This document shows positions 4,775 to 63,269 of a stretch of 64,000 nt of DNA, piece after piece. The notes below the pieces were generated by a model, which saw nothing but the letters and a program-made list of their open reading frames with translations, had not been told where the DNA came from and did no database searches. This DNA comes from Eukaryota sp. GEM-RC1 (lineage: Eukaryota), in assembly GCA_040285855.1 (NCBI GenBank), contig JAUFOQ010000004.1, positions 744,001 to 808,000 of the forward strand, written 5' to 3'. The first letter of the stretch is position 1, and every line of letters begins with the position of its first letter. A program made the position numbers and the translations under genes.

Positions 4775-5019
4775 AAAATATTTAAAAAAGAAATTATTAA
4801 AAATTTACTCTATGTGTATCGTTTTGGTTTTGCTTCAGGGAATATCCTAGTGACTGAAATGACAAATCGGGTTCAACCAAACATAATCCTTCAATTATAG
4901 TTAGAAAGAAGGAATGATCAATCACTCCAGATGACGTGTAAGACCATTCACTGTTTAATCTCTTAATCAAATGAGTTATGAGAAGAAACAGTGAGATAAA
5001 AATTTATTAGAAGATAAAT

Positions 5020-8420: not shown

Positions 8421-8520
8421 AATCCGAAGATTCAATAATGCTACAGATTCACTGTAGTAAATATAGGCTATGACTATGACTATGACAAATAACTGGGTCT
8501 AACTCCTAGACCCCGCTCCA
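8421..8520 (-). ncRNA. Putative Fanzor omegaRNA (scaffold to 8441, then flank-derived guide CATTATTGAATCTTCGGATT)
   Basis: Conserved with 39421-39498 up to a sharp breakpoint; hairpins GGGTCTA-ggagt-TAGACCC and CTACAG-tgaat-CTGTAG; 5' limit unknown. Confidence 0.55.
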
Positions 8521-10020: not shown

Positions 10021-10436
10021 TTTTTTTAAAATACACAGTTTTATTATAAATGCAATAGATCAACCAACTAAAATTTGATATCATTAAAACAACACCCGTC
10101 GCTATCAAACCTTACAACAGCGTTGTCCTCATAAATGGCACTCACTGCAAATAAAGCTTTGGAGATGATTAGGGGAACTGTTTTAAAACAGTAAAAACGA
10201 TCCGATTCAACCATAACATAAAATCAAAACGTTTGCTCATCCTATTTTTTACGATTTTTCCGAAATCGTTTAAACAATTCAATGCACTTTTTCCTAAACG
10301 TCCGTAAATTGGAAACAGCAAAAGGGCATAATTCATATTCAACATGTTTTACATGTGTTAAAGCCATCAATGGTTTCTTGTACTTATCCTGTTTAGCCTG
10401 TTCAGAAAAGTCTAAAGGAGAAGTTTCAGACGAAGC

Positions 10437-11967
10437 TAGGGATGCGAAAAAATATATTGTTATTGTATTTATTGCAATAAATATTCACAATAAATTTATT
10501 GTTGGTCAAAACAATAACAATATATTTATTGTGAGTCCCAGCAATAAATAATAATATTGCAATAATATTGTTTATTGTGGCAATAATTTTCATCACTAAA
10601 ATCATCCATCTGTTAAAAAAAATAGAGAGAATTTATTCGGCACCCAATAAGGTAACCTTCCTACAAACTATGAAATTGTAAAAACAAACAAATAATACTA
10701 AGATTAAATCCAAACGACTTCATCACCACCCGGTAAAAGATTACGTTTATCAACATTAACCTTCACACCAAACTTGTACAATTTCTCAATTAATCTAGAG
10801 AAATAGAAAGGCATATTCCGATATATGGAAAACACAATACGGTTTTTCCATTCAGCCATTCTAAACTTACGCTTCTTTTCTTTACACAATTCTTCAAAAT
10901 CCTTGAAAAATTGATCACCAGCAGGACTAATTGATCCAAAAGAGAAACATCAAAAGGTTGAAACACAAATTTGGAATATGAGTTTCTATTTAATTCTTCT
11001 ACTTGAGAGTCATACTTGGAGTGTTTGAGCTTTTCAGCAGCTGTTAACGGGTTAAAAGAAGAATCTAATATCCTACTAACACAAGATTTGTTACATACAT
11101 CTACTGTAGTAAAATCCATTAATGATTGACTCGATTTAAGCCACGGAGTATGTAGATCCCCTCTTTTTGATTCCATCTGTTTGATGTTACATGCAATTTT
11201 GCTTCCATTTGGGAGTAAGAAGATGTGTTGTGGGAGAAGTAGTCCTCTGAAGAGCTTTCACTTCAGGAAAAACAACCTAGACAAAAGAGTATAATATTTG
11301 TTTAAGTCAAATTGAAGACTGTTTGGCTTTTAAACTGCCGTAGTTCAACAAAGTCTAAACGGCAATCAAGAACTGATGACCGTAAGAGTGGGAAACATTC
11401 AGAAGAACTTTTTGCGTGGGACATACCAAGCAAGTCGAACGACTATTTAGTCGTGCTAACGTGACTACTGAAACCCTTCGCAAAAGACTATATACATCAA
11501 GTCTGGAAAAACAACTTTTTTTGAAAAAAAACGGATTTATGTGCGGAGAAAAACACATAATAAGAAAACAATAAATAAATGAACACTATTAAAACAAATT
11601 ATCAAACGAACTACCTAATTTCGAAAGGTACTAGTAGTTGCCTCCAAACAACTTGGACAAAATGGAATCAACATATCTTTTATTGATGTATAACTCTCAT
11701 CTATGGTGAAGATACTGTTCGCAAAAGTCGTAATACTAACCCTTGACTTGGTTGTTGGACAGTGAAGGAGATTTTACGGATGATGGCGAATAGACCACAA
11801 CAAAAAGGAGTCAACGGATTGCGTAGAAATATTGCCAATATATTTATTTATTTATTTGCAAACTTGACAATACCAATATTTTTATTGTTGGCCACAACAA
11901 TAACAATACATTTATTATCGTCGTGAACAATAATTTATTTAAATAAATATATTTTTTCGCATCCCTG
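10437..11967. mobile_element. Non-autonomous hAT-type TIR element
   Basis: TIR (T/C)AGGGATGCGAAAAAATATATT at both ends; 8-bp TSD GACGAAGC at 10429-10436 and 11968-11975. Confidence 0.9.
10631..11180 (-). mobile_element. 5'-truncated CRE-like LINE, family B, nested in the hAT element
   Basis: RGDL..DFTTVDVC..AAEKLKHSKY..FQPF..EWKNRIVFSIY; near-identical copy at 43211-43690. Confidence 0.75.
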
Positions 11968-12732
11968 GACGAAGCGTTCTTTAAAGATGTCTTTTTACAA
12001 ACATCCACTGACACTACATCAACAACAAACAATTTGTCTGAAGAAGAAGGGACAACAACATCTGCTCTCCGTTGACAACTATTAATTGGGTCTAAAGATC
12101 TTCGAAGTGGTTCAACAAATGATTCAATTTTATAAGACTTACAAATAGAATATATTTACCTGTTTATATCATTTTCATTGTTAATTCCAGTGATCGTCAA
12201 AATATAGAACTTTTAGGCAACTTTTTAGACAACTCCGTAACTAGGAGTTGGATACTACTCCGTATCTTTATTTCCAAAGATAATCTAATATGAGCAAGAT
12301 GTGAAAGATATGATGTTGACGACGCTGCTAAGACGGGGATGTCAGGGGTATCAAAGGAAATATATCCGGTATATGTGAAGTCAAGAAAGAAGGTAATACA
12401 ACTTCAAGTTGATGATCAAAAGATGTTATCAGAATGAACGCCAGCAATACGACAGTTTATTACCAAAGAGAACTACTGATAGATGCGACAGACAATGTGT
12501 CATATGGGAAAAAGGGAGGAAAATGTCGGACCGTGAAAAGTGCACACTATATAGTTTTACGCTATCAGTTTTTTGCTTTAATGATATTGAGTTCTAGTAC
12601 ATGTATTTGTGTTTACTTTAGTGTTTTTGTTCCATAAAAATGAAGCTATACAGTCATGGTCAAACCTCTATAATTTCTCCCTCCATAACTGCTCAGTCCC
12701 AAACATCTTGAACTTTGACATCACTTGTGAAC

Positions 12733-14229: not shown

Positions 14230-14759
14230 ATCCAATTTTTTGGTAAACGGAGAGCAGATGTTGTTGCCCCTTCTTCTTCAGACAAATTGTTTGTTGTTGA
14301 TGTAGTGTCGGTGGATGTTTGTAAAAAGACATCTTTAAAGAACGCTTCGTCTGAAACTTCTCCTTTAGACATTTCTGAACAGGCCAAACAGGATAAGTAC
14401 AAGAAACCATTGCTAGCTTTAAAACATGTAAAACATGTTGAATACGAATTATGCCCCTTTGCTGTTTCCAATTTACGGACGTTTAGGAAAAGTGCAATGA
14501 ATTTTTTAAACGATTTCGGAAAAATCGTAAAAAAATAGGATGAACAAACGTTTTGATCATATGTTATGGTTGAATCGGATCGTTTTTACTGTTTTAAAAC
14601 AGTTCCCCTAATCATCTCCAAAGCTTTATTTGCAGTGAGTGCCATTTATGAGGACAAAGCTGTTGTAAGGTTTGATAGCGACGGGTGTTGTTTTAATGAC
14701 ATCAAATTTTAGTTGTTTGATCTATTACATTTATAATAAACTCTAATTTTTCAAAAAAA
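14230..14759 (+). mobile_element. 5'-truncated CRE-like LINE, family A, with poly(A) and TSD
   Basis: RLE C-terminal motifs; poly(A) at ~14753-14760; 13-bp TSD AGTATTTTGTCAG at 14217-14229 and 14760-14772. Confidence 0.85.
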
Positions 14760-23217: not shown

Positions 23218-23591
23218 CTTGACAATATTTAACACAATTTTTGATTGAGTGGAGAAATTAAGTGTTACTGTATGTAAGTGACTTCAACAAAACATGAGTA
23301 AGTGAGTGTACACGAGTAAAATTCAAGTGCAGCGCCACGTTAATTTTATTAGAGAGACATCACCTTGAAATACCAGAATAAAAAACGGATTTTTGTACAG
23401 AGAAAAACACACAGCAAGAAAACAATCAAATAAATAAAGACTATTAAAAATTAAAACCAGAATTGGAATCAATTAATTTGTACTGATACAAATAACACAA
23501 TTAAATCAAATCAAATCTTGCACATAGCCTATTTTGATACTTCTAGTGTTGAACCATCACTTATAGGATGCAAGTTTATTAGAAAATGAAG

Positions 23592-24963
23592 CTACAACAA
23601 CTCAAGAACACAACTATGATTAGCCAAATACCCAACAAGATGGTAGTTATCATTATCTAAAGAACTAATTTCTCTTGTACAATTAAATCCAGGGTCTGAC
23701 TCTTTTGTAACAGTAATTGAATTATTCACAAGATTAATTGTGATTTCAATGATTTCATTTCGGTTCCATTTTCCATTAGGGGTTCCTGACGGATAGAAGT
23801 TATTCCTATGACTGTAAAAACAATGAGCATTTGGCTTTGAGTAAACACCACTACAATCAAACTCTTTTCTAGGAATAATTCCAATCATTAGTTGATTAGA
23901 AACAGACGAAGGAGTGCCATTCCTAGCCCTAACTTTATAGACATTTCCTGTAAGAAGAGGAGTTTCTGAAAGAACATTGGACCAGCCTGAACCATTGTGA
24001 GTAACAGTTTTTCCTCCATTTGAAATATTTAAATTTTGACTTTTGATATCAGATGAAAAGGAAAGAACTGAAGAATCAACAGGTTTTGCACATGTATCTT
24101 GTTTTTCAACATTTTCCTTCAATTTAAATATTTCTTCATCTTTTTGCTTAATTAATTCAGTTGCTTCAACCAATTGTTCTTTTAACGTCAAATTTTCAGA
24201 AATTATTGACTCGAAAAATATCGGACGTAATTGTTTAAAGTGAAACTTCATCAAAACTTCTTCCAAATTTGAAATATTCTCAAGAGGATTTAAAAACAGC
24301 CCATCCCAGTCTTTAAAAAGTCAACAGGTTAACGTCAACAAGGGTCAGAATTTGAGATAATTCTTCAGAATTTATAGTTTCTGATTTAACTGAAGCCACA
24401 AGTGACTTAAAAAACCATTTGAAAGAACTTGAAGAAGTGCAAAATTCGAGTAAACTTTGGAGAAAGACAAATGGGAAGACAAATTCAGATTTTTCACAAA
24501 TATTTTCAATTTCTGTAAGAAAATCTCCAACAAATTTTAATCCTCTCAAGTCTTCTTGTTCAACACACTTTGTCAAGAACTTGCTGCACCAGTCCCAATT
24601 GGTCATTTTTGAAGGGAGAATCTCCATAAGAGTAGTTTTAAGATGATCACACTGGAAGTAAGTAGCAAGGTAGAAAATATCATAGACGTTGGAAGAAGTG
24701 AGGTCGATGGTGTGACCAAAGAAGGACGAGATGAAGGCGGAGAAAGACTCAAATGATATGGGCAAATGCGAGAAGTCCAAAGGGTTCTCAAAGCGATCTC
24801 CAAACTCCATAAACCAAAGAGAGAAGAAGTACTGAGAGTTGGAAGCAAGGACTGACTTAATGACAGAGAAGGACTCATCATTAAAGATAATGGTTTGATC
24901 ATGGAGATCAGTGTTGGATTGGAGTGTAGAGAGAGTGTTGGGTGAGGTGGATGTGAGTGACAT
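23592..24963 (-). CDS. BTB/POZ - coiled coil - SPRY protein, copy 2 (one frameshift in a homopolymer at ~24315)
   Basis: ORFs 24313..25011 and 23592..24266; same domains as copy 1. Confidence 0.8.
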
Positions 24964-25935
24964 TGAAGGAGAGATTTGAATTTTGTATATTTCTATCAAT
25001 TCATGGTGCAATGAGATTGCCTAGTCGACAGTTAGAGATGATGTCATCAATGTAATGCTTAGTATGAGGGTTAGATTTGCCATACAATGATTAAATTTTA
25101 GCAATATATACATACGTTCTGTCACAAACTGAATCTGCATATAACACAACTTTATGATATGGTATGGCTTGTCAAATTCTAAACTAGTTCGGCTTCGGCT
25201 TGAGCCATTTGAGTAAGCCAAGCCAAATTTGGATATGAATTGGTCAAGTCGATCGTCTTACGGCTTGAGCCGAACCGTTTGACAGCTCTAACATAACATT
25301 ATTAAAAGCTATTTTATGATTAATGAAGTACGACCTGATCTCGATCTTCCTTTGGATGATTGAAGCATTTTATCACTTCAAAAAGTTTAGACAACAGCTG
25401 GTGGATTTATTATTGAAATTTTGTTCAATCATTAGATTTACATTTGTATAGAACATTATAAACTTCACAACCAGAAGCATATTCTTCACTCTGCTTGTTT
25501 CACGACCACGATGGTATGTGACAGTAGTCGGTGGTCTTTGTTATCGATCTGATGTCTACCACCACTGATGCTACGAGGGCTTAAAAATCATATGCATCGT
25601 AATTCTTATCTTTGTCAAAACAACCTAGAAATCAAACAGAACATTCATCTGTACTAAATCTCACGGCAACTGTTTGCTTATACAAATAATTAAAGTAGCT
25701 ACTGAATTATTAACAAGAATTGCTATAGAGTGTTAGTGTAATGGCGTATTAGCCTATTTGTACCTTTATGAATTCACTTTTCTTTATTCATATGACTAAG
25801 ACCAACAAGAGGGTGTAAAGATAATGCCATCCAAATGTGCCGACACTTTTGATCGGAACGGTTGTCCATTTTTTCCTCAAAGAGAATTTGTTGCTACAAG
25901 TAAAAATTGTTACACTGATATTGCAACGTCTTGAT

Positions 25936-29301: not shown

Positions 29302-30660
29302 TTAAAAGCCCATTCTACTACCGTGTAACGATTTAATTGACTCTTTTGTTTCACTGTCAATAGGGTTGCCGAAAAGAAGAATTGATGAAACAGATGTGTT
29401 CACCTTTAAAGCCTCTGCAAGTGCCACAGCACCCTCATTTCCAATAGAGTTTTGATATAGATAAATCGTAGATAGAGCCGAATTCACCTTTATAGCCTCT
29501 GCAAGTGCCACAGCGCCCTCATTTCCAATAGAGTTTTGGTAAAGATACATCGTAGAAACCGAGGAATTCACCTTTAATGCCTCTGCAATCGCAACAGCTC
29601 CTTCCTCTCCAATGGGGTTTCTGTCCAAACAGATCTCTGAAACAGATGAAGTCACCTTCAGAGCTTCAGCAACTAGTTTAACATCCTCAGGACCAATAGA
29701 CATGTTACTTAGATTGACTTCAATGATTGTATTATTTATCATTGAATCACAACAATTCTTCAATGAGGAACCTGGGGTTAAACCAGGGGTTAGAGAACTG
29801 AGGTTAATGGAGGAAGAACCTGGGTGGAAGGTCAAACCACTTGTTGTGGGTTGACCAAGAAAGGCACCAGTACCGAAAGTTCCAGCAGTAGTACTGGGAG
29901 GATTGTTGCCAAAAGAACTACTAGTACCGAAGGAAACAGACTGTGGGGGAGATGATTTGCCAAAGGAACCAGAACCGAAAGTTCCAGCAGTAGTACTGGG
30001 AGGATTGTTGCCAAAAGAACTACTAGTACCGAAGGAAACAGACTGTGGGGGAGATGATTTGCCAAAGGAACCAGAACCGAAAGTTCCAGCAGTAGTACTG
30101 GGAGGATTGGTGCCAAAAGAACTACTAGTACCGAAGGAAACAGACTGTGGGGTTGATGGTTTGCCAAAGGAACCAGAACCGAAAGTTCCAGCAGTAGTAC
30201 TGGGAGGATTGGTGCCAAAAGAACTACTAGTACCGAAGGAAACAGACTGTGGGGTTGATGGTTTGCCAAAGGAACCAGTACCGAAAGTTCCAGCAGTAGT
30301 GCTGGGAGGATTGGTACCAAAAGAACTACTAGTACCAAAGGAAAGAGACTGTGGGGGAGATGGTTTACCAAAGGAACCAGCACTGAAAGTTCCAGTGGTA
30401 GTACTGGGAGGATTGTTAACGACAGAACTACTAGTACCAAATGAAACAGACTCTGAGGCAGAAGAGGGTTCAAGTGGTTTCGGATCTTGGGGGGAAAACT
30501 TTGGAACAAAAAAGGCATGTTTCTTCAAAGGAGAAGATACATGGGATCTTAAAGGTTCTGAACGGTGAGTCACTCGAAAACAATCATCGCATAGGTCAGA
30601 ATCACATTCAGCGCAATTAACAGTTGAAGGAGTTTGCTTACATTCGATGCATTGAGACAT
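29302..30660 (-). CDS. B-box zinc finger + FG-rich tandem repeats + ribonuclease-inhibitor-type LRRs
   Basis: CIEC..CAECDSDLCDDCFRVTH..H; 34-aa repeats; 28-aa LRRs such as LYQNSIGNEGAVALAEALKVN. Confidence 0.85.
   Translation of the reverse strand: MSQCIECKQTPSTVNCAECDSDLCDDCFRVTHRSEPLRSHVSSPLKKHAFFVPKFSPQDPKPLEPSSASESVSFGTSSSVVNNPPSTTTGTFSAGSFGKPSPPQSLSFGTSSSFGTNPPSTTAGTFGTGSFGKPSTPQSVSFGTSSSFGTNPPSTTAGTFGSGSFGKPSTPQSVSFGTSSSFGTNPPSTTAGTFGSGSFGKSSPPQSVSFGTSSSFGNNPPSTTAGTFGSGSFGKSSPPQSVSFGTSSSFGNNPPSTTAGTFGTGAFLGQPTTSGLTFHPGSSSINLSSLTPGLTPGSSLKNCCDSMINNTIIEVNLSNMSIGPEDVKLVAEALKVTSSVSEICLDRNPIGEEGAVAIAEALKVNSSVSTMYLYQNSIGNEGAVALAEAIKVNSALSTIYLYQNSIGNEGAVALAEALKVNTSVSSILLFGNPIDSETKESIKSLHGSRMGF
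29855..30452 (-). repeat. 102-bp coding tandem repeat, ~6 units
   Basis: Unit SVSFGTSSSFGTNPPSTTAGTFGSGSFGKPSTPQ. Confidence 0.95.
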
Positions 30661-31060
30661 TTCGAAAGAAGATGAAGAGTTATCAATATGACAGTCGATC
30701 AAAAGGAAAACTTGGTCTGCCGTTCAGAACTAGAAGTTATTTATTGTAGTTATTTGCTGGTGACGTGTTTAAAAGCAGTTGGTGAAGTAAAGAAAGCAGA
30801 TGAAGTTTGTTCATACTATTTGAGCGAGTATTATTTGAGCGTATCGTTTGACACTAAATGAATGTTCAGCAAAGTAGTTTATTTTGTATGGATAGAAGGA
30901 GAGAGTAGCTATTTTACGGGAAACTCGCTTGTCAAGACGGACAGAAGTGGGAAATTGTAAATGATTGACTTGAAGTGTTGAGGAAAGTTCTTAAAATACA
31001 TCCTCTGCTTCTTTCTTCATCAATCACAGTGACGTAAACCACACAGATAAAACTAAATAG

Positions 31061-32698: not shown

Positions 32699-33539
32699 GT
32701 CTTCGCAGTAATTTTAGGAGTGCAGTAATTTTATATACGGACATGAAAAACTTTTACGAACAAATCTGCTTTGGGAGTGTTTAGTGGATTACTATTCAGC
32801 TTCTACTAACGATTACAAATCTGAATTAGACCAAATTCAACGTCGTCGGCAGACTGTACATGATTCTCAAGTATCAGATGAGATTGTTGATGTCAATGCT
32901 GAAAGTTTAGGGAAGTGTTCCCCAAATTTGGGGAAAATGTAGCAGATCAGTAGTTCTTGTTTTGTTTTAATTTTTTGTTTTATAAATGGATTTAATCTTT
33001 GTATTGTTTGTTTGTTTTTGCACTCACTTTCATCGTTTTTTCCATCATACAATGGCCTGTACCCTAGATCAAGATTTTAGTGACTGTCATTACAAATGTT
33101 GTCATTACAAATGTTGAACAAAATCAACATCTATGTGTGGAAAATGTAGCAGTAATTGTTATGTTTTGATTTATTTATAAGGCATTGCGGTGTTCAACAA
33201 AAATAAATGTAAATAGGGACGTGTTGGAGTGAGTATCACCATGATGTGTCCAATTTCTTGCATTGGAATCAAAACAGTCCCAATCTTTCATTCAAAAGTG
33301 TGAAGATGAGAAGAGTTTTGACAGAGTGCATATGACGGTGGAGTTAGCTGTAGTGGTTCGTAACACTGGGAAGCTGGGAAGAAGCTAAATAAACACAGTG
33401 AAAGATCACGATTGAAAGGATCTTCACCTTTTAAGATCATAGGGAGGTGTGTTCATGAAGAGAAGACCAGTACAACATATGATGAAGATGCCATAATGTC
33501 AAGTTGTCAGTGTCAACATCAGCTATAAATAGTTGAAAT

Positions 33540-34214
33540 CAGGGATGTTAAAAAATATATTTTTATTTTATTTATTGCAATAAATATTATTTATTTATTT
33601 ATTGTCAGCAGCTGGATCAACAATATATTTATTGTCTCAAATCGCAATATGCAATAATATTGCAATATATTGCAATATTGTGACAATATATTTTCATTGC
33701 AAATATCGAACTTTCTTCATTTCAATTCTTACAGTACTGTCTCAATTTTGTAACCAAGGATACAAACAGTTGATCATACCATCATGTAACAAAATTGAAA
33801 GATTGTTCAGTCGAGCAAAGCTTACTACTGGCACTCTTCGATCACGTTTACACCCTTCAAGCCTTGAGAAACAGTTACTTTTACTCTACAACTCCCAACT
33901 TTGGAATGAAGAGACTGATCGAAGAATTCTCCTCCACAATCCTTTTCAAGATTTGTTGCACTAAGATGGGGATGTAATAGATGAAGAATAGATTATACTA
34001 CGATAGCAATTTTTCACTGATTGATCATAAACCCGGTTTTTCTACATTATACCAGTACTAAAGTTGCAGCAGATAATAATGTCAATAAATATATTTATTT
34101 ATTGTGATGCCCGACAATATCAATATATCTATTGCAAGCCCACACAATATCAATATATTTATTGCAAGCCCACACAATATTTTATTTATTTAAATATATT
34201 TTTTAACATCCCTG
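33540..34214 (+). mobile_element. Non-autonomous hAT element with a dimerization-domain remnant
   Basis: 23-bp TIR CAGGGATGTTAAAAAATATATTT; 8-bp TSD GTTGAAAT at 33532-33539 and 34215-34222; PSCNKIERLFSRAKL..RSRLHPSSLEKQL. Confidence 0.93.
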
Positions 34215-34222
34215 GTTGAAAT

Positions 34223-37200
34223 CTTTTTGACCTGTATCTCATTGCCTTTTTCGCTTCCAAACACTGCAAAGTGTTTCGAATGATAGTAACAGGATTCAGT
34301 TACTCGCACTATCACTCGTCGTTTTTCAACAGTCGTTTTAATCAACAGTCATCTCAGTTTTGTCATGACCTAACCACGGACGGAGGCATAGAGTCCAATC
34401 CAGGACCTCCTCTTACAGATGACCTTAGAGATGAGCAACTGAGACCCGTTTTTGCACCAAACGTAGACAATATCGAGACGTTAGAGCCCAACGTCTGGGT
34501 TAATGATGATGTCATCGACTTATACGGTGATTTTCTTACAAAAAGCAGCAAATGTTGTCAGTACTTTCCAATCAATGACCTGCTTGGTGCTTCTGGTGTT
34601 TATGATTTTCAACTATTGTTAAAAAAAATTCGAATACCTAATAACTTCAATGAATGTTTGTGTTCCGAAGAAACGATTCATATTCATGCCAATCAACGAT
34701 GGCCTTGTCGGTAAAACACCGACTCATTGGACACTTCTAATTTGCGATATTAAGATTAGACGACTTTTTTCAATCGATTCAACGTATACTGAAGAGGAAC
34801 ACTTCAAACATCTGGCGAATACAATTCGAGCTTCTCGCAATGAAAAAGTAGTCCAACGTTTACAGCAAGATTTGTTTAATGACGCACAGTATTTGTATAT
34901 GGATAAACTAGTTGTAAAGCAAGAGCAAACTGAAAACGATTGTGGACCTTTTATTCTATTGTACATTCAAAAGTTTGTTACCTTAACAGACTCATATATT
35001 GATTGTTCATCTATCGATTTTAAGGAAATTTTAACCAAACTTGTAACTAGCCAAGACTATGATGCTTTAAAAATGAGGAAAGAAGTTTTGACTCATATTT
35101 CGACTACTCAATCAGCAGAGAGGGCTAAACGTGCTAGAGAAATCTTAAACAAATTCTTTTCCGTTTATTCGACACCTTCTCAACAGCGTCGTAAACCCAA
35201 AAACCAGATGCAAGAAAGAAAAAAGGTCCTAAAACTAAACAACCGGCCAAAAAAAGAAAGAAGACTGCTAATACTTCTCAATCTCCCGGTCCATTGTGCC
35301 ATATCACTGAAAGTAAATCTTGCTAGGTTCAAGGGACTAAAAACATGGAACTCGCCGTTTGATTTATCTGAACCTTCTACACTGATATCATCTACTCATG
35401 AAATTCCAGATCCTAACAAACTGACAAAAACTCAATTACAAGAGGTTTCAGAAGCAATCAAATCGTTGTCATCTGAAGAATCGATTGCAGAAGAATGTGT
35501 CAATTGGTACTCTCGTCATTTGATGGACATATACAAAGTTGATTTCAATGCCTTTGTAGCTTCTGGATCACTTCAATCATATTTAGTTGATGAAACTCAA
35601 TCTCTCCACGAGTTTTTCATGAACAAGATTCTTCAGACAGATTCCAGATATCTTTTTGTTCCAATAAATGATGCAATGACTGGTTTACATTGGGGTTTGA
35701 TTGTAATTGACAAAAATGATCTACAAGTAATATTTCTCGATCCTCTTTATAATGTTGAAGATCACAGGCAGGATGTTGATAAAAATTTAAATGAAATTGA
35801 CTCTTATTTGAATCAAGATATTTCAAAAATACATGAAATTCTTCATCAACTCCAGTTTCAGCTCATTATTGTCCCAGTGCTACAGAAACAAACAGCAAAT
35901 GATTGTGGAGTATATGTTCTTCAGTTTATGCGAGGACTTATAGAACTTCTGACTTCAAACCAATTCACAGATCAATCTCTTCTCCATGCTGCTGATAGAA
36001 TGATACAACAACCTATCAATACTAGGGAGAGTAGACAAGAAATAAAAGTGTACCTTCAATCTCTACAACCTCCTACAAGTAGAAACCGCATATCTGGACA
36101 AACCAAAATTAAGCGAACATGCAAATATCCGGTGAAAAAAACTGACAAAGTTGCTCAAAAAAAAGTCAAAAAGGATTATACGAAAGCCCAGTGATTCTGA
36201 TATAGAGGTTCCAAATGTGACTCATAAAGAATTTCTAAATAGTTTACCAGGTGATTTGTCTAACCGACAAAGAGACGTCGCTTGAAGTTGCACATGATAC
36301 AACACGCACTTCAAGAAGCTGAACAATTGTTTCAGGATTCTTTGATTCGTCCAAAGTTAGAGACTTTAGCTCCAATAGATTTGACAACTCCTAAAATAAA
36401 CGTTGCTGCTTGTGAGAAAACTGAAACCACAAAGACACCAGCTAAGAGTACAACAAAAGTTGGCAAATCCAAAAAGTCAACAACCAAACCAAAGGCAAGT
36501 GGTAAAACTAATGCTACCAAGAGTCTTAAACCTCCTAAGAAACAAATGATTGAGTTTCATTGTAATTCTGAATTACCAGAAGACTCTAACTCTTGTTCAA
36601 TATTGTCGTTTGATATTGAAACAAGAGAAGTTGATCAATTGCCTGTTAAGAAACTTACACAGAAGTTGAATGATCAAAGACATGAACAAAATGAAGTTTT
36701 AAAAAACCAAAGTGATTCAGAAAGAGAAGCTTGGATTGAAAAACAACAAGTGTTTATGATTTCTGGAGTTTTCGGTCATTTTATTAAGGATGAGTTTTAC
36801 CTTCAAGAAAGCTTCGTTGCGACTTCAGAAGAATCAACTTCCTTTTCAAAAGTTGAAAATCCAACTGATTGTCATAGCCTTTTCTTCTTTGAAGATGAAA
36901 AACAGTTACTAGAGTTTTTTGTCAATTATTTGACTGATAAAAATCCATCTGTTTTAACTGGATTTAACATTACTAATTTTGATAATGTTGTTCTAGACAA
37001 TAGAATTGATGCATTTGGAATAGACTTTCCAGAACCAATGCAAGATGATACCACAAAATCACATTTGTCACCTTTATGGCAACGTGTTTGTACTGAATGG
37101 GCTGGTAGAACTGTCTGTGATTCTTACCTCTATGCTAAACAATTCATTGCTACAAAATGTTCAAGATCACTAAGATCACTAAGTTGGTTTTTATTAAATG

Positions 37201-39498
37201 AATCAAAAGGGCATCTCCATGACAAATTCGAACACTTGTTACCTATTGATTGTGTTAGTAGACGACCTCAAGAAGTTCTAAACTATTGTTTCCAAAGACA
37301 GTGTATTAGCATTGAAGTTGTTTTTATTATTTCAATCAAATAAAATAGTTCGTCCCACTTTTGTAACACATAAGACTACACTGAAGTCTATTGTAAAACA
37401 TACAGGACTGGAATTATTGTTGAATTATTATGCTCTATTGGTTCATAAGCTACGGATGCACACTTCTTATTGTTTGAAGCTGTTTTTATTGCATTTAAAT
37501 AAGAATGAGCTTCCACTACCATTAATTTCAAGGAAAGAGGTTGAACACATTCAAACGTTGCTGAAGGAAATCTCTGCTGATCGTCATAAGATTAAACTAA
37601 ACAATGGAAATCCAACAATTAATGACGACTTGAGAACATTTGTTACAAATCAATACAAACAAGTAATGATGGACAATGGTGGTATTCCACAATTTCCAGC
37701 TGCATATTCTCCACGACTTATGGCAATGGTAGGTGAAACAATCAAAACAAATTTGAACACCAATATTAAAATGCGATATCCTCAGTACATTGACAAATTT
37801 ATTAATGTTTGGTTTGAAAAGAATAGTGTTGAAGAAGAAATGTCTAAAAAAGAAAAGTCTGTATTTCGTTGGAGATTGAGACAAGTAAAGAATGTTTTTC
37901 TTCAAAGGAATAGAAACGATATTCCAACGACCACTGAAGAAATACAGGAGTTTATTGAACAATCTAATGCAGAAATTCTTGAAGATGACAGTGAGAAAAG
38001 CTTAAGCATTGCAGATAAAATGCAACTTTTAAGGCAAAGCCACGACACTGTTCTAAAACTGTTCCAAGATAATGTCTGCATTGATATCCTCTTCCCACCA
38101 ACAATTAAAATTCAAAAGTCAAATGGTGATTATGAAGACAAACAGATTGATTCTCTACTTAAAGCAGTACATGAACATCCACAATCGTTTATTAAATCAG
38201 CAATACAGATAAATAACTTTCTTGAAGAGGATGAAGCCAGTACTTACAATATAATTCCGATTGTTCGACACGTGGTTCCAGGCTTCTTTGGAAGTAGACA
38301 CACAAGGTCTTTGGGGAATATTACGTTCCACATTAACCAATCATCAGGTTAAAGAGAAAAAAAACAGATCTGAGTGGAATTCAATTGAGGAAAATTAGGC
38401 ACATGTCTCCTGCCGAACAAAATCAATTCTGGTCATACTTTGTCAATTTTAATCGTCCATTTATAAAGAAAGGCTATAAGTTTAACAATTCTATTAAAAC
38501 TGATGGTTTCTCTGCTTGTGTTGAACTTACCAGAGAGGACTGTGTGGGAATGTCGTTCAAACCAGACAGCGCAAAGTTCTCCAGTACTGATGAATATGTT
38601 CAAGACTATGATATTGAAGAGTTTACATTGAAAACAAAAGTTTACATTGATCCTGGCAAGAAGGATTTACTCTACTTCTGTTCAGAAAAAATAAGAAAGC
38701 CAGAAAATTTAGCCCGTGAAATGAGAAACAAAGAATACGAGTGGCTAAGATTGACAGAAACAGAATGGTCGAGATTGTCCAGAGTCCATCAAAAGTTTAG
38801 AAGGGAAAAGAAAAAAGAATTTATTCTCCGAGATGAAAAAACGGTTGAACAAGAAGAGTCAACATTATCCAAAGAAAATTCAAAGTCAACCGTGTATGAA
38901 ACCTTCTATGACTATGTGGGTTCCAAACTGACAGTTATTGAATCAACATTTGATTACTACTGTTTGATGATATGGCGCATTCAAAAATGCAAAGATATGT
39001 CCATATTCAAAAAACAAAAAGTAAGTTGTTGAAAAATATGACTGCAAAAGGATGGAATAAAAATGACTGTGTATTGATGTTTGGTGACAATGGTAATAAG
39101 AGGCAGAACCTAAAACACCTCCGATCAAGTAGAGGTGTGATGTGGAGAAACTTCTTTAAGAGAAATGGTTACAATATTGTTCTCGTAGATGAGAGTTACA
39201 CGTCTTCAAAGTGTCCTACTTGTTGGGGGCCAGTCAAAGTGTTTATGGAAGTTGACAATCCTCGACCCAAGACACAAGAAGAGAAGCCTACGGTGAAGTT
39301 ACATGCGTTGTTGAGATGTCAATCTGAGAAGTGTAGAGAAGAATGTGATGACAAAGACAAAGTGTGGAATCGTAACAAGTTAGCGTGTATCAACATCAAA
39401 GCTATTGTGGAGCATCATTTGGAGCGGGGTCTAGGAGTTAGACCCAGTTATTTGTCATAGTCATAGTTATAGACTATATTTACTACGTGAATCCGCAG
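34223..39498 (+). mobile_element. Fanzor-encoding element; right end defined, left end not determined, no transposase recognised
   Basis: Homology with the copy at 8441-10020 stops abruptly after GTGAATC(C/T)G(C/T)AG at 39498. Confidence 0.7.
34280..39460 (+). CDS. Multidomain Fanzor polyprotein (~1700 aa once frameshifts are bridged): 2A-like peptide, 2x Ulp1/SENP protease, PolB-type DEDDy exonuclease, Fanzor/TnpB RuvC
   Basis: Six same-strand ORFs joined by single-base shifts. DLTTDGGIESNPGP; PIND..HW..DS..Q..NDCG twice; SFDIET / TGFNITNFD / YCxKD; KTDG, YIDPG, VDESYTSSKCPTC, WNRN..ACINI, RPSYLS*. Confidence 0.85.
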
Positions 39499-39862: not shown

Positions 39863-40807
39863 CAGTTTATGGAACAAAAACACTAAAATAAACATAAATA
39901 CTAGAATTCAATATCATCAAAGCAACAATCATTGCCATTAAAACACACATCAGATTTTTCTTCATAAAAAACACTGAGAGCTAATAGAGCTTTTGAAATC
40001 ATGATAGGAATTGTTTTAAATATTGTAAAAACAATACGATTCAACCAAAATTTGAAATCAAATTTCTTGTTCATTCTTTTTTTGACCACTTTCTCAAAAT
40101 CAGAGAGAAAACAAAGAGCATCTCTACCAAGTCGACCATAAATTGAAATTGCAAAAGGACATAATTTGTACTCAACATGTCTAATATGTTTGAGAGCAGT
40201 CAGTGGTTCATCATATTTGTTTCTCTTGTATTGTTCTGAAGAATTCAGTGGAGAAACTTCATTTTTAGCATCCTTGAATGCACTTTTTTTGCAAACATCC
40301 ACAGTAATCACATAAACAACGGTTAGTTCATCATTAGCTGATGGAACTATAACATCAGCTCTTCGTTTACCAAAAGTCTTATCAGAATCACTATTTTTGG
40401 AAATTATTGATTTCCAGTGATCTCAACAGTGGCTCAACGAAAGATTCGATTTTGTAGGACTTACACATAGCATGAATTTGATCTCTGACAGCATCATGAA
40501 TACAAGTTCTATAAGTAATGAAACGATTACAACTCAAAAGGTGAGAAAAAGTAACTAATTTACCACATTTGCATTGAAGATCATTGGGTAAATTAGAGGG
40601 CCACAAGAAACATCGAAGTCTGAATGTTGTAGTCCATTGATGATCATTCAACAACAAACCATAAATCTGAGGAATTTGGTTAATCAAAGCAACTGAAGAA
40701 CTGTCCTTCAAATCGATTAAAAAATTTGCGACAGCTGGATTTTTTTCTTTGGCCGAGCCAAGTCGAATTTTAAAATCCAAACATTCAAAATGTTTTAAAA
40801 GGTGTTT
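39863..40807 (-). mobile_element. 5'-truncated CRE-like non-LTR retrotransposon (zinc knuckle + restriction-like endonuclease)
   Basis: CKCG..HLLSC, IHDAVRD, EP, RADV, TVDVC, K..KY, PFAISIYGRLG; 13-bp TSD TTGCAAAGAAGAT at 39850-39862 and 40808-40820. Confidence 0.88.
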
Positions 40808-40887
40808 TTGCAAAGAAGATGAATACTACTAGTACAGTAGTACAGTTCATACTTGTAGTATGAAAACGGATTTCAGAATTTAACTTC

Positions 40888-43210: not shown

Positions 43211-43690
43211 TTTATTCGGCACCCAATAAGGTAACCTTCCTACAAAACTATGAAATTGTAAAAACAAACAAAAAATACTAAGATTAAATCCAAACGACTT
43301 CATCACCACCCGGTAAAAGATTACGTTTATCAACATTAACCTTCACACCAAACTTGTACAATTTCTCAATTAATCTAGAGAAATAGAAAGGCATATTCCG
43401 ATATATGGAAAACACTATACGGTTTTTCCATTCAGCCATTCTAAACTTACGCTTCTTTTCTTTACACAATTCTTCGAAATCCTTGAAAATTGATCGCCAG
43501 CAGGACTAATAGATCCAAAAAGAGAAACAGCAAAAGGTTGAAACACAAATTTGGAATATGAGTTTCTATTTAATTCTTCTACTTGAGAGTCATACTTGGA
43601 GTGTTTGAGCTTTTCAGCTGCTGTTAATGGATTAAAAGAAGAATCTAATATCCTACTTACACAAGATTTGTTACATACATCTACTGTAGA
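43211..43690 (-). mobile_element. 5'-truncated CRE-like LINE, family B
   Basis: Near-identical to 10631-11110; possible TSD ACATTGTAA. Confidence 0.75.
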
Positions 43691-49505: not shown

Positions 49506-50360
49506 CTACTCAGCAAAGGAAACCGTACAAACAAGATAAATATCTTCAGTGCTATCTTCAACGTCATGGAAAGTAACATCATAAGACTTACCAAACGGCA
49601 GCGCTACTAAAAAATTAGCAATACAAAGTCCAACATCCAAAGTCTTTGGGTAATTTGGTGTTTCCCTACCATCGAAAAAGAACGCAACTTGATTATCCTT
49701 AGTTACAAAACGCCAGGACTGTCTGTTAATGGCTGAAGGTGATATCCTGGCTGCTTCCAAAGCAGCGGTCATCCAAGGAAGTTCCATTGTTCTTTCATCT
49801 GATAAAATCAGTGTAGACATGGGTTTTCTCTTCGCTGAACCAGCCATTGTTGAAAGTACTCGCTCACCAAAAGGTTTTGTATCGGTGCAGTATCCAATTG
49901 GAGTGACAGCTAATACGTCCTCGTTTTCAGCGAGATCGTAATATCGTTTAATATTGTCTTTGTACCAAGTTCCTGATATGATACAAGTACCAAGAGATTG
50001 GGCGGTACAGTATAAGACAAAAGCTTCAAGAACGATACCAGCTTTGACACGGGAGAAAGATTGGTTATTGTCGACTATGAGGGTGGCAAATAAGGAAGCA
50101 TTAGCACGGGCAAAACTGGCAAAGATCCCTTTGAAGACAGGAAGATCAACTCTGGCTTCAGAGATTTCTATTCTAATGCCTTCATATGGAGTGAAACTAG
50201 CTGCAAACTCTTTTAGAGAATCAACAACTGATCGAGAAACAATTCGAGAAGTGTCGTAAGATCGACGTGACTTGCGTAAGGGAATGGCCTTTTGAAGATC
50301 GTCATGATGAGGGAAGGTTAACATAAAGCCAAAGAAATAAAGTAAAAAAACAATTAACAT
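49506..50360 (-). CDS. Nitroreductase family protein (two-module, TM1586-like)
   Basis: AIPLRKSRRSY, LGTCIISG, TPIGY, KRKPM, ALEAARISPSAINRQSWRF, LDVGLCIANF; start may be the ATG at 50324. Confidence 0.85.
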   Translation of the reverse strand: MLIVFLLYFFGFMLTFPHHDDLQKAIPLRKSRRSYDTSRIVSRSVVDSLKEFAASFTPYEGIRIEISEARVDLPVFKGIFASFARANASLFATLIVDNNQSFSRVKAGIVLEAFVLYCTAQSLGTCIISGTWYKDNIKRYYDLAENEDVLAVTPIGYCTDTKPFGERVLSTMAGSAKRKPMSTLILSDERTMELPWMTAALEAARISPSAINRQSWRFVTKDNQVAFFFDGRETPNYPKTLDVGLCIANFLVALPFGKSYDVTFHDVEDSTEDIYLVCTVSFAE

Positions 50361-55967: not shown

Positions 55968-57025
55968 TTACAATCTGGTCACTCTGATCAAAGCAGATCC
56001 CAAGACCTCATCAGCTGCTCCATAGAAAACCATGAACTCATTAACACCAACCTGCTTCATGCCCTCGATAAATACAACATTTGGAACCAAGCCTTGAGGA
56101 TTCCTTTCCCAAGCTAACTCAGGTGTTAAAATGGGGACTTCAGACCTTTGAAGGATGTGTGAAGGATCTGTCCCATTGAGAATGAGATAACCTGCGTTGT
56201 ACTGGAGATCATAGCCAGGTCGTACGGAAGGAAATCCTCTACGAGCAGAGTTGTAAATGAACAAATAGTTGCCATCAGACAGAAGAAGCGGTGGAGGACC
56301 AGACTCAACAAGTTCAGAATCAAAATGGTCATTGCGTACTGTCAGAAAGTCATCAATGGTGGTCTTATAACTTATCAAATCATCGGAAACTGCAAAGAAA
56401 GCTTCTCATCCCCCCAGATCAGGTAATGTGGGGAATCTGCTACATCATCTCTTAACAACAGAGCCCCAGACTTTGACCATTTGTTAGTGACAACTGGCCC
56501 ATGTCTCTTCCAGGATTCCTTTATCAAGGGGGTAGTAGTAGTAGCGAGAGCTAGTCTGGAAGTGAGACTTGTTGGTGTCTCTTCAACAGCAGAGTAGAAC
56601 ATGTAGTAAGTTCGATCTTTTGTTCTATACACAATCCGAGGGTCTTCAACTCCATAGTTCTCTTCAGGACCAGACGCTTCAAAGACAACATTTCTGTTGG
56701 TAATCGGAGACAGTCTTATATTACTTATGTTTTCTTCAAGCTTTCCACTTTTCGAAGTGGAGAAGGATGCAGTGACTACAGATTGACCAACTTCATAGGG
56801 AGGTTTAGTGACATTCTGGGATCGTACAAACAGAACATCAATGCTCTCAGTAGGAGATGTATATACTGGGGCATAAGAAGGGTTATACGAAAGCGTAAAG
56901 ACAGACTGAATATCGAGGGGACGTTGCTGGTTGACTCTTTTCAGGGTAACATCATACAGAGGAACTGTGGCCAGACTCACAGAGCACAGAGCCATATACA
57001 TCAAAACCCGAACATCGAATCTCAT
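55968..57025 (-). CDS. Glycoside hydrolase family 130-like (beta-mannoside-active), secreted; break near 56380-56400
   Basis: YGVEDPRIVY, WSKSGA, LVESGPPP, YNSA, GLVPNVVFIEG, YGAAD. Confidence 0.85.
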
Positions 57026-58001
57026 TGAGAGTGAGTGATTTAACTCAATTAATGAACTTATGTTAACCTGTCAAAATGAAACCAATGAAACCGAAACCAA
57101 ACTAAAACTTCTTCAAAACGGATTGGTTGGCCATTTTCAGCTTTGTGACTGATTTTAGTGGACAATGATCATCATTTTCGTCATTACAATACGTTTAGAC
57201 ATGGAAACAATGACTACCCAATCATCAGCAGGTTTTAAAACCATTGAATGATTTACAGCTTTTATGCAAAACAAATCATTTTTACAGCATTTTTACAGCA
57301 AATCGTTCCTAGCTCTTCGTTGTTCGCTAAAACATCATTAATGATGTCAAATTTCTCAATGTGTCACTGCCTTTTAAAAAAAATCTTTTAAAATCTTTAT
57401 TATTATTTTTTTCTTGAAACCCTTTCTCTCCTGCTTGATTGCCAATGGTATCCCACTAGTATTATCAGTAGATGCACGTCAGTCATAGCTTTTATTTCAC
57501 ATAACAATAAACATCCATCATCGTCTGTTCACACTGCACGGAACAAGCCCTCGATTTAGTGCCTAACTCGATTTAGTGCCGGTCCAAACAGGGGCACTAA
57601 ACCGAGGGAAGACTGTATCTACATTACTATCCTGCTATAACTTCAGCAGGGACAGAATATTTCTGTTGTAATTAATCTGAGTCATAAATTTTCGACTATA
57701 TATACATTTTTTAAAACAATTCATGTTATGATCTCCAAAGCTGTTTTAACTCTACGTTTATTCACAGAAAAATTTTATGTGATATTCAGAGGCAATAACT
57801 GTTGCTTTAATGATATTCAGTTCTAGTTTATATTCCTTTCTTTTTGTAAACCCACGTTTTAAGGAATAGTGTTTACCATGTGCAGCATTGAACTAATTAA
57901 ACCGATTTCTTATGTACTAAAGAGATGATACTGTATTTTGATTAAATCTAAAGCAATCTAATAGATTTTGTAAATTACAATCATCACTAATTACATTAAT
58001 C

Positions 58002-60276: not shown

Positions 60277-60710
60277 GTTTTGAGTTTCGTGAATGATGAA
60301 ACAGTTTGTGAATCACTGGTAGTACCGGTATCACTTGAAAATATTTAACATAATATTTATTGAAGTGTTACCGTATGTGAACGACTTCAAAAAAACATGA
60401 GTAACTGTGTTTACAAGAGTAAAATTCAAGTGCAGCACCACTATAGTGTTGATCTTATTAGAGTGACATCACCTTTAAATACCAGAATAAAAAACGGATT
60501 TATGTACAGAGAAAAACACACAGCAAGAATACAACAAAAAATTAAAGACTATTAAAAATTAAAACCAGAATTGGAATCAATTAATTTGTACTGATAAAAA
60601 TAACACAATTAATTCAAATCAAATCTTGCACATAGCCTGTTTTACTACCTCTAGTATTGAACCATCACTTCACTTACACTTATAGAATGCAAGTTTATTA
60701 GAAGATGAAG

Positions 60711-62088
60711 CTATAACAACTCAAGGACTGAATGTTTCCAATGCAAACACCCAACAAGATGGTAGTTATCATTATCTAAAGAACTAATTTCTCTTGTACA
60801 ATTAAATCCAGGGTCTGACTCTTTTGTAACGGTTATTGAATTATTCACAAGATTAATTGTGATTTGAATAATTTCATTTGAGGGCCATACTCCATTAGGG
60901 GATCCTGGAGAATAGAAGTTGTTGTAAGCACTAAAGAAACAATGAGCATTTGACTTTGAGTAAACACCACCACCACTAACAAACTCTTTTCTAGGAATAA
61001 TTCCAATCATTAGACAATTACGAATAGACGAAAAAGGGCCATTCCTAGCCCTAACTTTATAGACATTTCCTGTAAGAAGAGGAGTTTCTGAAATAACATT
61101 ATACCAGTCAGTTGGACCATGGTGAGTAACAGTTTTTCCTCCATTTGAAATATTTAAATTTTGATGTTTAAGACTAGAAGAGAAACTCAAAACTGAAGAT
61201 TCAACAGGTTTTGCACATTCCTCCTGTTTTTCAACAATTTCCTTCAATTTAAATATTTGCTCATCTTTTTCCTTAATTAATTCAGTTGCTTCAACTAATT
61301 GTTCTTTTAACGCTAAATTTTCAGAAATTATTGACTCAAAAATATCGGACGTAATTGCTTAAAGTGAAACTTCATAACAATTTCTTCCAAATTTGAAATA
61401 TTCTCAAGAGGATTTAAAAACAGCTCATCCCAGTCTTTTAAAGTCAACAGGTTAACGTCAACAAGGGTCAGAATTTCAGATAATTCTTCAGAATTTATAG
61501 TTTCTGATTTAACTGAAGCCACAAGTGATTTTAAAAACCATTTAAAAGAACTTGAAGAAGTGCAAAATTCAAGTAAATTTTGGAGAAAAACAAATGGGAA
61601 AACAAATTCAGATTGTTGACAAACATTTTCAATTTCTCTAAGAAATTCTCCAACAAATTTTAATCCTCTCAAGTCTTCTTGTTCAACACACTTTGCCAAG
61701 AACTTACTGCACCAGTCCCAATTGGTCATTTTTGAAGGAAGAATCTCCATAAGAGTAGTCTCAAGATGATCACATTGGAAGTAAGTGGCGAGGTAGAAAA
61801 CGTCATAGACGTTAGAAGAAGTGAGGTCAATGGAGTGACCAAAGAACGAAGAGATGAAGGCGGAGAAAGACTCGGATGATATGGGCAAATGAGAGAAGTC
61901 CAAAGGGTTCTCGAAGCGATCTCCAAACTCCATAAACCAAAGAGAGAAGAAGTACTGAGAGTTGGAAGCAAGGACTGACTTAATAACAGAGAAGGATTCA
62001 CCATTAAAGATAATGGTTTGATCATGGAGACTGGAGTGTTGGACTGGAGTGTAGAGAGAGTGTTGGGTGAGGTGGATGTGAGTGACAT
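60711..62088 (-). CDS. BTB/POZ - coiled coil - SPRY protein, copy 3 (frameshifted)
   Basis: ORFs 61328..62179 and 60711..61247. Confidence 0.8.
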
Positions 62089-63269
62089 TGAAGGAGAGAA
62101 TTGAATGAAGATTATCTAAGAGATAACAGATCTTTCTATTAGGGATGGCGGCCGGCCCACTTTTTACTCTCGACTTCAAAGGGACGAAAATTCATACTGT
62201 ATCGGTTGTAGGTCAGTCTTTATATTCAAGAGTAGAAGTAACATCACTTCTTGTTTGTTTAACGTAGTGATGTGGAAAATTTATTTAATTATAATTAATT
62301 GAGTTAATTCCCTGAGAATTAATTACATTAATTGTACTTTACTGAAGCCTGGCAAAAAGGCATTGTTGTTTTTACATGTGTCGGACCCATTTGGGATTAA
62401 GAAATCAAACATATAACGACCAGTTATTCTCCCCAAAAGTGATCGGGAAAGATATTTTTTGACATAAACTCCTTTCGTGATCACTCTTGGGATATATACG
62501 TTAGACGAAGTGTATAGTGGATAGTTACACCATCCATCTATTAGCAAAACGAGTGATTTTACAAAATCGTTAAAGAGAGAATTGATGTAAGAACATTCGA
62601 TATGTATGTCTGTACTCTCCTTAGTATATGGTCGGGCAGATTGGCGGTAACAAATGTTTGAAGGTATAACCCATCATATTCAAAATTCTTGCACTTGTTT
62701 TATACAAAGATTGTCTTACGGTCATTCATTCAGAAGTACCGTATCCTTTGATATTATGTTTGAAACACAGAAACTGCTTAAGAAAACCCCCGAATTTAAC
62801 ACTAACTGTGACGGTAAACAAACAGTAGGATGCTGCTCGGTCAAATAGACGAATCTCTATATACCAGCAACAAACTTATCGAAAATATAATATAAATAGT
62901 GTTCACTTGGAACACACAACATCCGACTATTTACTATTTACAGCAATCTCATCTTCTACAAGTGTTACGTTCGACAGAGTTTGAGAGAAAAAGACTCAAC
63001 TTTGTTTTTTTGATGAGCTTGAGTATTTCACAAGTCATGTCTCAAGCCAATCCACTCTCTCGATCACTAAAGTAACTCATGTATTATAGAGAACGAGACC
63101 AATGAAGTTTACTTTCCGGCAATTTCTCTATATGTATTTATATTTTGTTTAATTTGTTTTATTTTGTTTTATTTGCATATTCTTCAAAAAGGCCCAAAAA
63201 GAAATAATAATACAAATAAATACAATTCATTAGAATTTGTATTTATTTATGAGGAGCCCTGGATATACT

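Follow-up and report, generated by a model that had tools for sequence, protein, structure and literature searches.

RNA-guided nucleases joined to an exonuclease are known as engineered editors: TREX2-Cas9 and T5-CasMINI tether an exonuclease to the guided enzyme. Exonucleases that serve selfish elements are also on record. In homing of the T4 td intron, the 3'-5' exonuclease of the family B polymerase gp43 (43Exo) and DexA act on the ends made by the intron's endonuclease and promote homing (PMC2988022; PMC12153337). Among eukaryotic mobile elements, Dada transposons, the bdelloid long terminal repeat (LTR) elements Juno and Vesta, and Terminons keep an intact accessory DEDDy domain (PMC3706591; PMC5408684). 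Here we describe an element of Eukaryota sp. GEM-RC1 in which a predicted DEDDy exonuclease of the family B polymerase type is fused to a Fanzor1 nuclease. It lies on the forward strand at 34280-39498 of the window, by which we mean the whole 64-kb stretch analysed (64,000 nucleotides (nt); assembly GCA_040285855.1, contig JAUFOQ010000004.1, positions 744,001 to 808,000), whose gene content is eukaryotic (IFT46, cathepsin, a TFIIIC subunit).

Compared with the Fanzor1 proteins SpuFz1, PpFz1 and GtFz1, the nuclease part is alike over the whole fold, first WED strand through C-terminus, including the RuvC Asp and Glu and the C4 zinc finger, and it shares with GtFz1 the Asn at RuvC-III and a conserved 3' end that overlaps the open reading frame (ORF), as the GtFz1 omegaRNA does (PMC10432273). 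It differs from them in an N-terminal exonuclease attached almost without a linker, in upstream Ulp1 domains and in a 2A-like motif, and from the Spu-1 element in that no terminal inverted repeats (TIRs) like those of Spu-1 were found at the window copy. The exonuclease has the DEDDy residues of ExoI, ExoII and ExoIII and the fold of the family B DNA polymerases (Pol delta, epsilon and alpha, Pol II, gp43, viral PolB), but lacks their polymerase domain and carries a helical insert of ~40 residues after ExoI. Whereas T4 intron homing uses a phage replicative polymerase in trans together with a protein-guided endonuclease, here a captured domain sits in cis on a nuclease of the RNA-guided type, and its part in homing would be an inferred one. 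The domains of Dada, Juno, Vesta and the Terminons, in contrast, are attached to a DDE transposase or form a separate retroelement ORF, were compared by their authors with RNase D/WRN-type enzymes and come without an RNA-guided nuclease. Unlike the engineered Cas-exonuclease fusions, which are artificial and use other exonuclease families, the Fanzor fusion is natural, old and kept down to ~30% identity.

Among the matches listed in the open full-text literature (supplements, subscription papers and Repbase lie outside this scope), engineered fusions were the only ones that combined an RNA-guided nuclease and an exonuclease, and no natural case was listed of Fanzor with Ulp1, of Fanzor with other fused domains, or of TnpB with an exonuclease domain. 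The word "exonuclease" is absent from the main text of several Fanzor papers and of a TnpB survey, as is "Fanzor" from the Skoliomonas genome paper (PMC11316075). So far, an exonuclease-fused Fanzor1 appears to be new, although it may already be catalogued somewhere without comment; DEDDy domains in other mobile elements are already known.

In-Frame Fusion of the Exonuclease to Fanzor

The relatives of the window copy comprise 69 named records from three genomes, GEM-RC1 (23), TZLM3-RCL (32) and TZLM1-RC (14), from strains tied to Skoliomonas, a group of free-living anaerobic metamonads (PMC11316075). They were gathered by cluster look-ups and by searches in which the exonuclease ORF or a fused paralogue served as query. 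The GEM-RC1 records are the nearest to the window copy (851/898 residues identical for P0007), and those from TZLM3-RCL and TZLM1-RC are more distant. ExoIII runs in frame into Fanzor in all 28 records that bear it (27 recognised by profile and P0001 by eye; 8/23 from GEM-RC1, 17/32 from TZLM3-RCL and 3/14 from TZLM1-RC), the remaining 41/69 being fragments that do not include ExoIII. A single ORF spans ExoI to RuvC-III in nine records (P0013, P0026, P0029, P0032, P0033, P0040, P0189, P0190, P0197). An earlier note on this DNA, made from the window alone, had argued for a true fusion from an ExoIII motif split between two frames; the intact single ORFs of the related genomes are stronger evidence for the same conclusion, and we regard the fusion as almost certainly real. 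Many records were retrieved by a Fanzor-containing query, so that the sampling favours fused forms; retrievals from the exonuclease side show the same junction wherever the record reaches it.

The gap between the end of the exonuclease profile and the start of the Fanzor profile measures 6-7 residues in 26 records, a value that is partly by construction, as the profiles were built from the fused clade itself. In an AlphaFold2 model of P0013 (predicted local distance difference test (pLDDT) 81.9, predicted template-modelling score (pTM) 0.71), residues 1-246 match family B polymerase exonucleases (Z 15-16, root-mean-square deviation (rmsd) ~3.1, ~180 residues aligned) and residues 248-940 match SpuFz1 from its residue 18 (Z 27.8, rmsd 3.4, 564 aligned); the sequence alignment to SpuFz1 begins at P0013 residue 239, and the linker between the two domains amounts to ~5 residues. 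In the window, the first in-frame ATG past the junction lies 54 codons on (37456) with no stop between, so the earlier observation that neither a stop nor a new ATG follows the junction holds for that distance. A separate Fanzor start was rejected, because this first Met stands 54 codons in and is not conserved across related families.

In phylogenies, a long branch sets the fused Fanzors, together with fragments from their clade, apart from 91 other rows (FastTree, support 100) and likewise from 18 picked rows (IQ-TREE, 100/100), the tree being unrooted and the sample drawn with a query from the fused clade. Only one group is resolved in both the exonuclease tree and the Fanzor tree, and there the two are congruent, the exonuclease tree giving it moderate support. 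Judged from these sequences, one Fanzor branch carries the exonuclease, so far in three related genomes only. No relative was found in viral contigs (queried with P0013), in metagenome contigs (scanned twice) or among phage records; look-alikes in the ESM Atlas all score below 0.9, with exonuclease and Fanzor clusters separate there, and serve as leads only. A DEAH helicase ahead of the exonuclease-Fanzor in P0189 (TZLM3-RCL) was rejected as part of the element, being present in one of four cluster members; probably the gene caller merged the fusion with a host gene at its insertion site.

The Exonuclease Domain

The ORF of the exonuclease region (36591-37329, +) matches Pfam DNA_pol_B_exo1 with an E-value of 8.6e-17, which chance cannot explain. 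Its motifs lie in the window where the earlier note had placed them: ExoI (ILSFDIET, 36600-36623, with the D and E codons at 36612-36620), ExoII (TGFNITNFD, 36957-36983, D codon 36981-36983) and a split ExoIII, in which EVLNYCF (37272-37292) is followed by an extra C at 37293 and then by KDSVLALKLFLL from 37294 in the Fanzor frame, with the Tyr codon at 37284-37286 and the last Asp (37297-37299) just behind the one-base break. The residues of ExoI DxE, ExoII NxxxFD and ExoIII YxxxD (D, E, D, Y and D) are invariant in 6/6 family representatives, which are mostly ~30% identical and whose alignment has only 26 invariant columns out of 228. Identity between full-length families is 27-49% in the exonuclease versus 20-50% in the N-terminal half of Fanzor; conservation of the exonuclease is thus no lower than that of the Fanzor half joined to it. 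The exonuclease had been called intact, which is right for the family and wrong for the window copy as assembled, where one of nine frame breaks falls inside ExoIII.

A predicted model of the window exonuclease (pLDDT 83, pTM 0.84) was compared with 48,161 chains by VIA; the top 17 are family B polymerases (Z 11.2-13.8), and RNase T, REXO2 and 3'hExo rank lower (Z 7.0-7.4). Structure prediction and comparison therefore both return the DEDD fold that the earlier note had expected, and because the family B polymerase fold scores above the RNases, the models favour a DNA substrate. Pol delta leads in the sequence comparison (E 7e-13, the next family reaching 1.6e-7) and also in Foldseek. Since viral polymerases score in the same range as Pol delta and VIA ties several family B enzymes, no single polymerase can be assigned as donor; a polymerase-donor profile search, over proteins of 1674-4780 residues only, gave no match. 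No palm, fingers or thumb follows the exonuclease, Fanzor starting ~5 residues past its last helix, and the earlier statement that no polymerase domain follows is borne out by Pfam, sequence and structure comparison. Directly after ExoI, a basic two-helix insert of ~40 residues (36620-36750, +) is found in all families aligned and is a candidate contact to nucleic acid or to Fanzor. Motifs and model together identify the domain as a predicted 3'-5' exonuclease of the family B DEDDy type.

The Fanzor Domain

The Fanzor1 part (WED/REC, RuvC and C4 zinc finger) extends over 37345-39460 (+) and is in pieces in the window copy, with frame breaks at ~38293, ~38396 and ~38983. Its catalytic codons are those of the RuvC-I Asp (38649-38651), the RuvC-II Glu (39191-39193) and the RuvC-III Asn (39374-39376). 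The Fanzor1 motif D-X(125,275)-[TS][TS]-XX-C4 zinc finger (Bao and Jurka, 2013) is found in P0013 (D678, T863-S864, CPCC..CSSEGC), the D, [TS][TS] and zinc-finger motifs are present in the window pieces too, and the last window ORF has a weak Pfam match to the Cas12f/TnpB zinc-finger domain. The RuvC Asp and Glu are retained in most members, P0041 having Glu at the first site. In place of the terminal RD with its RuvC-III Asp, every clade member that reaches RuvC-III has RN. GtFz1 carries the same Asn and cuts, and the change raises the activity of SpuFz1 (PMC11423790); a Fanzor dead on account of this Asn was therefore rejected, and because the accepted, active GtFz1 shares it, the Asn does not exclude membership in Fanzor1. 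Foldseek aligns the P0013 model to the three Fanzor1 structures with E-values of 1e-29 to 2e-18, and to TnpB and Cas12 with only ~1e-4; the VIA Z scores of its Fanzor part are 27.8 for SpuFz1, 25.7 for PpFz1 and 22.2 for GtFz1. The model thus predicts a complete Fanzor1 fold (WED, REC, RuvC, TNB) with Fanzor1 as nearest structural kin.

Upstream 2A-Like Peptide and Ulp1 Domains

The protein does not begin with the exonuclease, and in-frame Ulp1 domains and a 2A-like motif had escaped the earlier note: the ORFs of the paralogues extend further upstream, where a 2A-like motif, a single or double Ulp1-type domain and a basic linker precede the exonuclease and Fanzor in one frame (P0007, P0029), and in both P0007 and P0002 the 2A-like peptide, two Ulp1 domains and the exonuclease share one frame. 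In the window, all on the plus strand, a short leader predicted from sequence (34280-34408) ends in the 2A/StopGo-like motif DLTTDGGIESNPGP (34367-34408). It is followed by a first Ulp1/C48-like cysteine protease domain (34409-35200; His motif at 34725, Q..NDCG present, frame break ~34625), a second one (35364-36161; His motif at 35688, Q..NDCG present) and a basic, Lys-rich linker with a conserved helix (..RRRLKLHMI..) at 36162-36590, which has breaks at ~36162 and ~36269 and is in frame in P0002 and P0007. The Ulp1-bearing ORF matches Pfam Peptidase_C48 in two stretches (E 1.3e-21), both with HWxL and Q..NDCG. Between the two domains, 82 nt at 35281-35363 (+) are not found in P0002 and P0007, and either were treated as an intron by the gene models or are a genuine insertion.

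Such 2A motifs are known in non-LTR elements. The core D(V/I)ExNPGP, a consensus taken from the literature, is canonical in 4/8 motif-bearing records (P0007, P0036, P0197, P0200) and variant in the other four; in P0007 it reads D-I-E-S-N-P-G-P, and the window copy has G in place of D. The Ulp1 domains are missing from some families (P0139, P0206), in which the 2A directly precedes the exonuclease region, and in P0200 the 2A follows an Ulp1 remnant. Thus the number of Ulp1 domains and the position of the 2A vary between families while the join of exonuclease and Fanzor is constant.

State of the Window Copy

Compared with intact paralogues, the window copy has nine frame breaks and no premature stop between 34340 and 39460. 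Runs of at least five A host 4/8 of the single-base breaks, the break in ExoIII lying outside such runs. Since nine frameshifts without a stop are improbable under assumed neutral indel rates (P = 0.001-0.12), sequencing error is favoured for these breaks; the assemblies behind the relatives' records were built from Nanopore R9 reads and corrected with Illumina data (PMC11316075). The break at ~38293 is common to the window copy and P0012 and counts against pure sequencing error. At an A run before RuvC-II (38975-38990, break 38983), the window copy and 6/6 GEM-RC1 records reaching the site are one base short, as opposed to 0/24 from the other two genomes. This shared shortage likewise counts against pure error; it may reflect a systematic read error, a dead subfamily or slippage. 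Programmed -1 frameshifting of the canonical type calls for an X-XXY-YYZ heptamer, none of which lies in frame at 38983, and was rejected. The second window copy has the full A run there, but an adjoining stop. All in all, either damage or mis-assembly accounts for the state of the window copy, which belongs to a multicopy selfish element, and its breaks leave the family-level conclusion on the fusion unaffected.

The 3' End, the Second Copy and the 5' Flank

A second Fanzor copy at 8441-10030 (-) is 5'-truncated and decayed, with five frame breaks and two stops, and its exonuclease is gone; the ratio of nonsynonymous to synonymous substitution rates (dN/dS) between the two window copies in Fanzor is 0.15-0.44. 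Homology between the copies stops at ~39498; the stop codon precedes this shared end by ~38 nt. The second copy has the same 3' end and closes in the hairpin CTACAG-TGAAT-CTGTAG, without poly(A). Over the last 133 nt, the two window copies agree at 123/133 positions, compared with 823/969 in the coding DNA upstream (Fisher p 0.017). This conserved 3' end (39366-39498, +), which overlaps the end of the ORF, is a candidate omegaRNA scaffold; Rfam gave no match for it at E-values up to 1.

Just 5' of the leader ATG, a perfect 7-bp hairpin (AAACACT-GCAA-AGTGTTT, 34259-34276, +) could mark the 5' end and is within chance. Immediately 5' of the leader, an unrelated non-autonomous TIR element occupies 33540-34214, with ends CAGGGATGTTAA and an 8-bp target-site duplication (TSD) GTTGAAAT; pieces of it recur at 10438-10593 and 11828-11968, and by its features we take it to be hAT-like.

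Proposed Role of the Exonuclease

The 3' overhangs with which recombination starts cannot come from a 3'-5' exonuclease, which digests 3' ends. The earlier suggestion that the enzyme resects ends to bias repair or homing consequently fails as to resection, and ordinary 5'-to-3' resection was rejected for its wrong polarity. Given this polarity, a role in homing would have to be either the removal of a non-homologous 3' tail or the spoiling of ends. We propose the former, as a reading that may well hold, with doubt slightly outweighing belief: the exonuclease would clip the non-homologous 3' tail of 14-17 nt left after an RNA-guided cut, so that the trimmed end can serve as primer when the element is copied into the empty site. 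Ribosome skipping at the 2A would separate leader and nuclease part. With the element's 3' end and flank as guide, Fanzor would then cut the empty site 14-21 nt from the target-adjacent motif (TAM), giving a TAM-side product whose displaced non-target strand has its 3' end 14-17 nt beyond the insertion junction and mismatches the filled allele there. The exonuclease, tethered at the TAM side, would digest this tail back towards the junction and leave a 3'-OH, which host recombination would extend into the left end of the element. Because the tail mismatches the filled allele at the left junction, it would have to go before the end primes synthesis.

If the TAM-side product is retained after cutting, as with Cas12a, its 3' tail would be single-stranded for as long as the R-loop persists. 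In Fanzor1, cleavage of the non-target strand falls after base 14-17 from the TAM, and H21 and T22 of SpuFz1 stack the first guide-target pair (PMC10432273); the exonuclease is joined next to these WED residues (the P0013 model joins SpuFz1 at residue 18), that is, on the side that would anchor the tail. Precedents are T4 intron homing with its family B exonuclease and, in bacteria, TnpB nucleases, described as homing endonucleases that cut vacant sites.

Several points weigh against the fusion as read here or against this role. The relatives' records are computer gene models on long-read assemblies, and some of them (P0003) bypass breaks via predicted introns; the window's break before RuvC-II recurs in 6/6 GEM-RC1 records that extend to it. 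P0033 has lost the ExoI Glu, and 0/134 other Fanzor1 hits carry the exonuclease (150 of 218 hits listed, representative search). The placement of the exonuclease on Fanzor is not established, because the linker (residues 243-246) has a pLDDT below 50 and confidence in the exonuclease is mixed in the P0013 model. As for the 3' end, conservation at third positions is not significant (p 0.26), and the folding of the omegaRNA candidate does not surpass that of shuffled sequences (z -0.76 and -0.74). No transposase, TIR, TSD, empty site or 5' end was found around the window copy, another insertion having disturbed its 5' side, and that eukaryotic Fanzors home at all is a premise borrowed from bacterial TnpB. 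Hosts, moreover, own proofreading and flap nucleases, so that a private exonuclease is not obviously needed.

The same fusion and the same evidence for a DNA substrate would also suit an exonuclease that spoils cut ends against religation in the manner of TREX2, so that targets are deleted or destroyed, which would stop futile cut-religate cycles or counter rival elements and viruses. Engineered TREX2-Cas9 and T5-Cas12f fusions do raise editing, and the Ulp1-type proteases could counter host control by SUMO or ubiquitin-like proteins. We nevertheless consider end spoiling rather unlikely: if guides derive from each copy's own flank as in other Fanzors (PMC10432273), they point to empty sites and not to foreign DNA, deletion of an empty site would cost the element its homing target, and no spacer-like array or virus link was seen.

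It is improbable that the exonuclease instead acts on transposition intermediates of a transposase or rolling-circle protein supplied in trans, its fusion to Fanzor being mainly that of a polyprotein. The DEDDy domain held by the Dada transposase is proposed to process exposed 3' ends (PMC3706591) and bdelloid retroelements carry DEDDy ORFs (PMC5408684), but these domains are described as RNase D/WRN-like and not as family B. The 3' end with its terminal hairpin and without poly(A) resembles that of rolling-circle elements; against this, elements of the Helitron2 type are recognised by hairpins at both ends plus asymmetric inverted repeats of 8-15 bp, and apart from the 3' terminal hairpin of the second copy, no inverted match of at least 10 nt to 32700-34340 was found. 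A polyprotein is also at odds with the fixed spacing of exonuclease and Fanzor (26 records, 6-7 residues) next to a varying number of Ulp1 domains and position of the 2A.

Guide RNA could be the substrate, the exonuclease maturing it by trimming the 3' end of a read-through transcript to a protected length. Fanzor guides are processed to 14-20 nt (PMC11423790; PMC10432273) and DEDDy enzymes include processors of RNA 3' ends (PMC5408684), yet other Fanzors mature their guides in yeast without an exonuclease domain (PMC10432273). The fold, besides, groups with DNA polymerase proofreading domains (Z 11-14, RNases ~7), and the attachment would be at the TAM side, with the guide 3' end TAM-distal, all of which makes guide maturation quite improbable. 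That the exonuclease is a passenger, or the fusion an assembly or gene-calling artefact with a polymerase fragment ahead of Fanzor, is highly improbable and largely refuted by a junction in frame in 28/28 records, three genomes and at least six families mostly ~30% identical, by invariant catalytic residues and by the absence of a conserved internal start, even though the window copy is frameshifted at the junction and all records are gene models of three related assemblies, the metagenome, viral and phage collections having given no relative.

Tail trimming could be extended to a self-sufficient "cut, trim and be copied" element, with a virus-like 2A polyprotein, an RNA-guided Fanzor with its end-preparing exonuclease, Ulp1 domains disarming SUMO-dependent host control, and recombination as the only means of spreading to tens of copies, the element having no transposase; this wider picture we hold to be rather doubtful. 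The fusion touches on two open questions, the fate of DNA ends after a TnpB or Fanzor cut and the spread of eukaryotic Fanzors by homing. A lineage has kept an end-processing enzyme on its nuclease over long divergence, so that one point mutation in the exonuclease would be a clean test of Fanzor's natural role. At ~940 residues and with intact coding sequences in public records, the protein is a natural counterpart of hand-built editor fusions, and should tail trimming stop at a defined point, it would offer a starting scaffold for donor-templated insertion.

Other Features of the Window

A BTB/POZ-domain ORF is present in three dispersed copies, 89-90% identical and each in pieces (5000-6388, 23218-24981 and 60334-62106, -), which are perhaps another mobile family with a host-type domain. 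Short dispersed repeats occur at 10020-10436, 14344-14759, 39900-40825, 10632-11109 and 43211-43689, several of them nested near the Fanzor copies; their ORFs presumably resemble the end of non-LTR retroelements with a cysteine motif and restriction-like endonuclease (Pfam PDDEXK_9 at E 0.12 only). At 29302-30723 (-), a B-box and leucine-rich repeat protein contains a 34-residue tandem repeat rich in Ser, Thr, Gly and Phe (102-nt units) and a further triple repeat. A nitroreductase gene (49509-50360, -) and a glycoside hydrolase 130 (mannoside phosphorylase) gene (55971-57070, -) belong to families common in bacteria and are possible lateral transfers.

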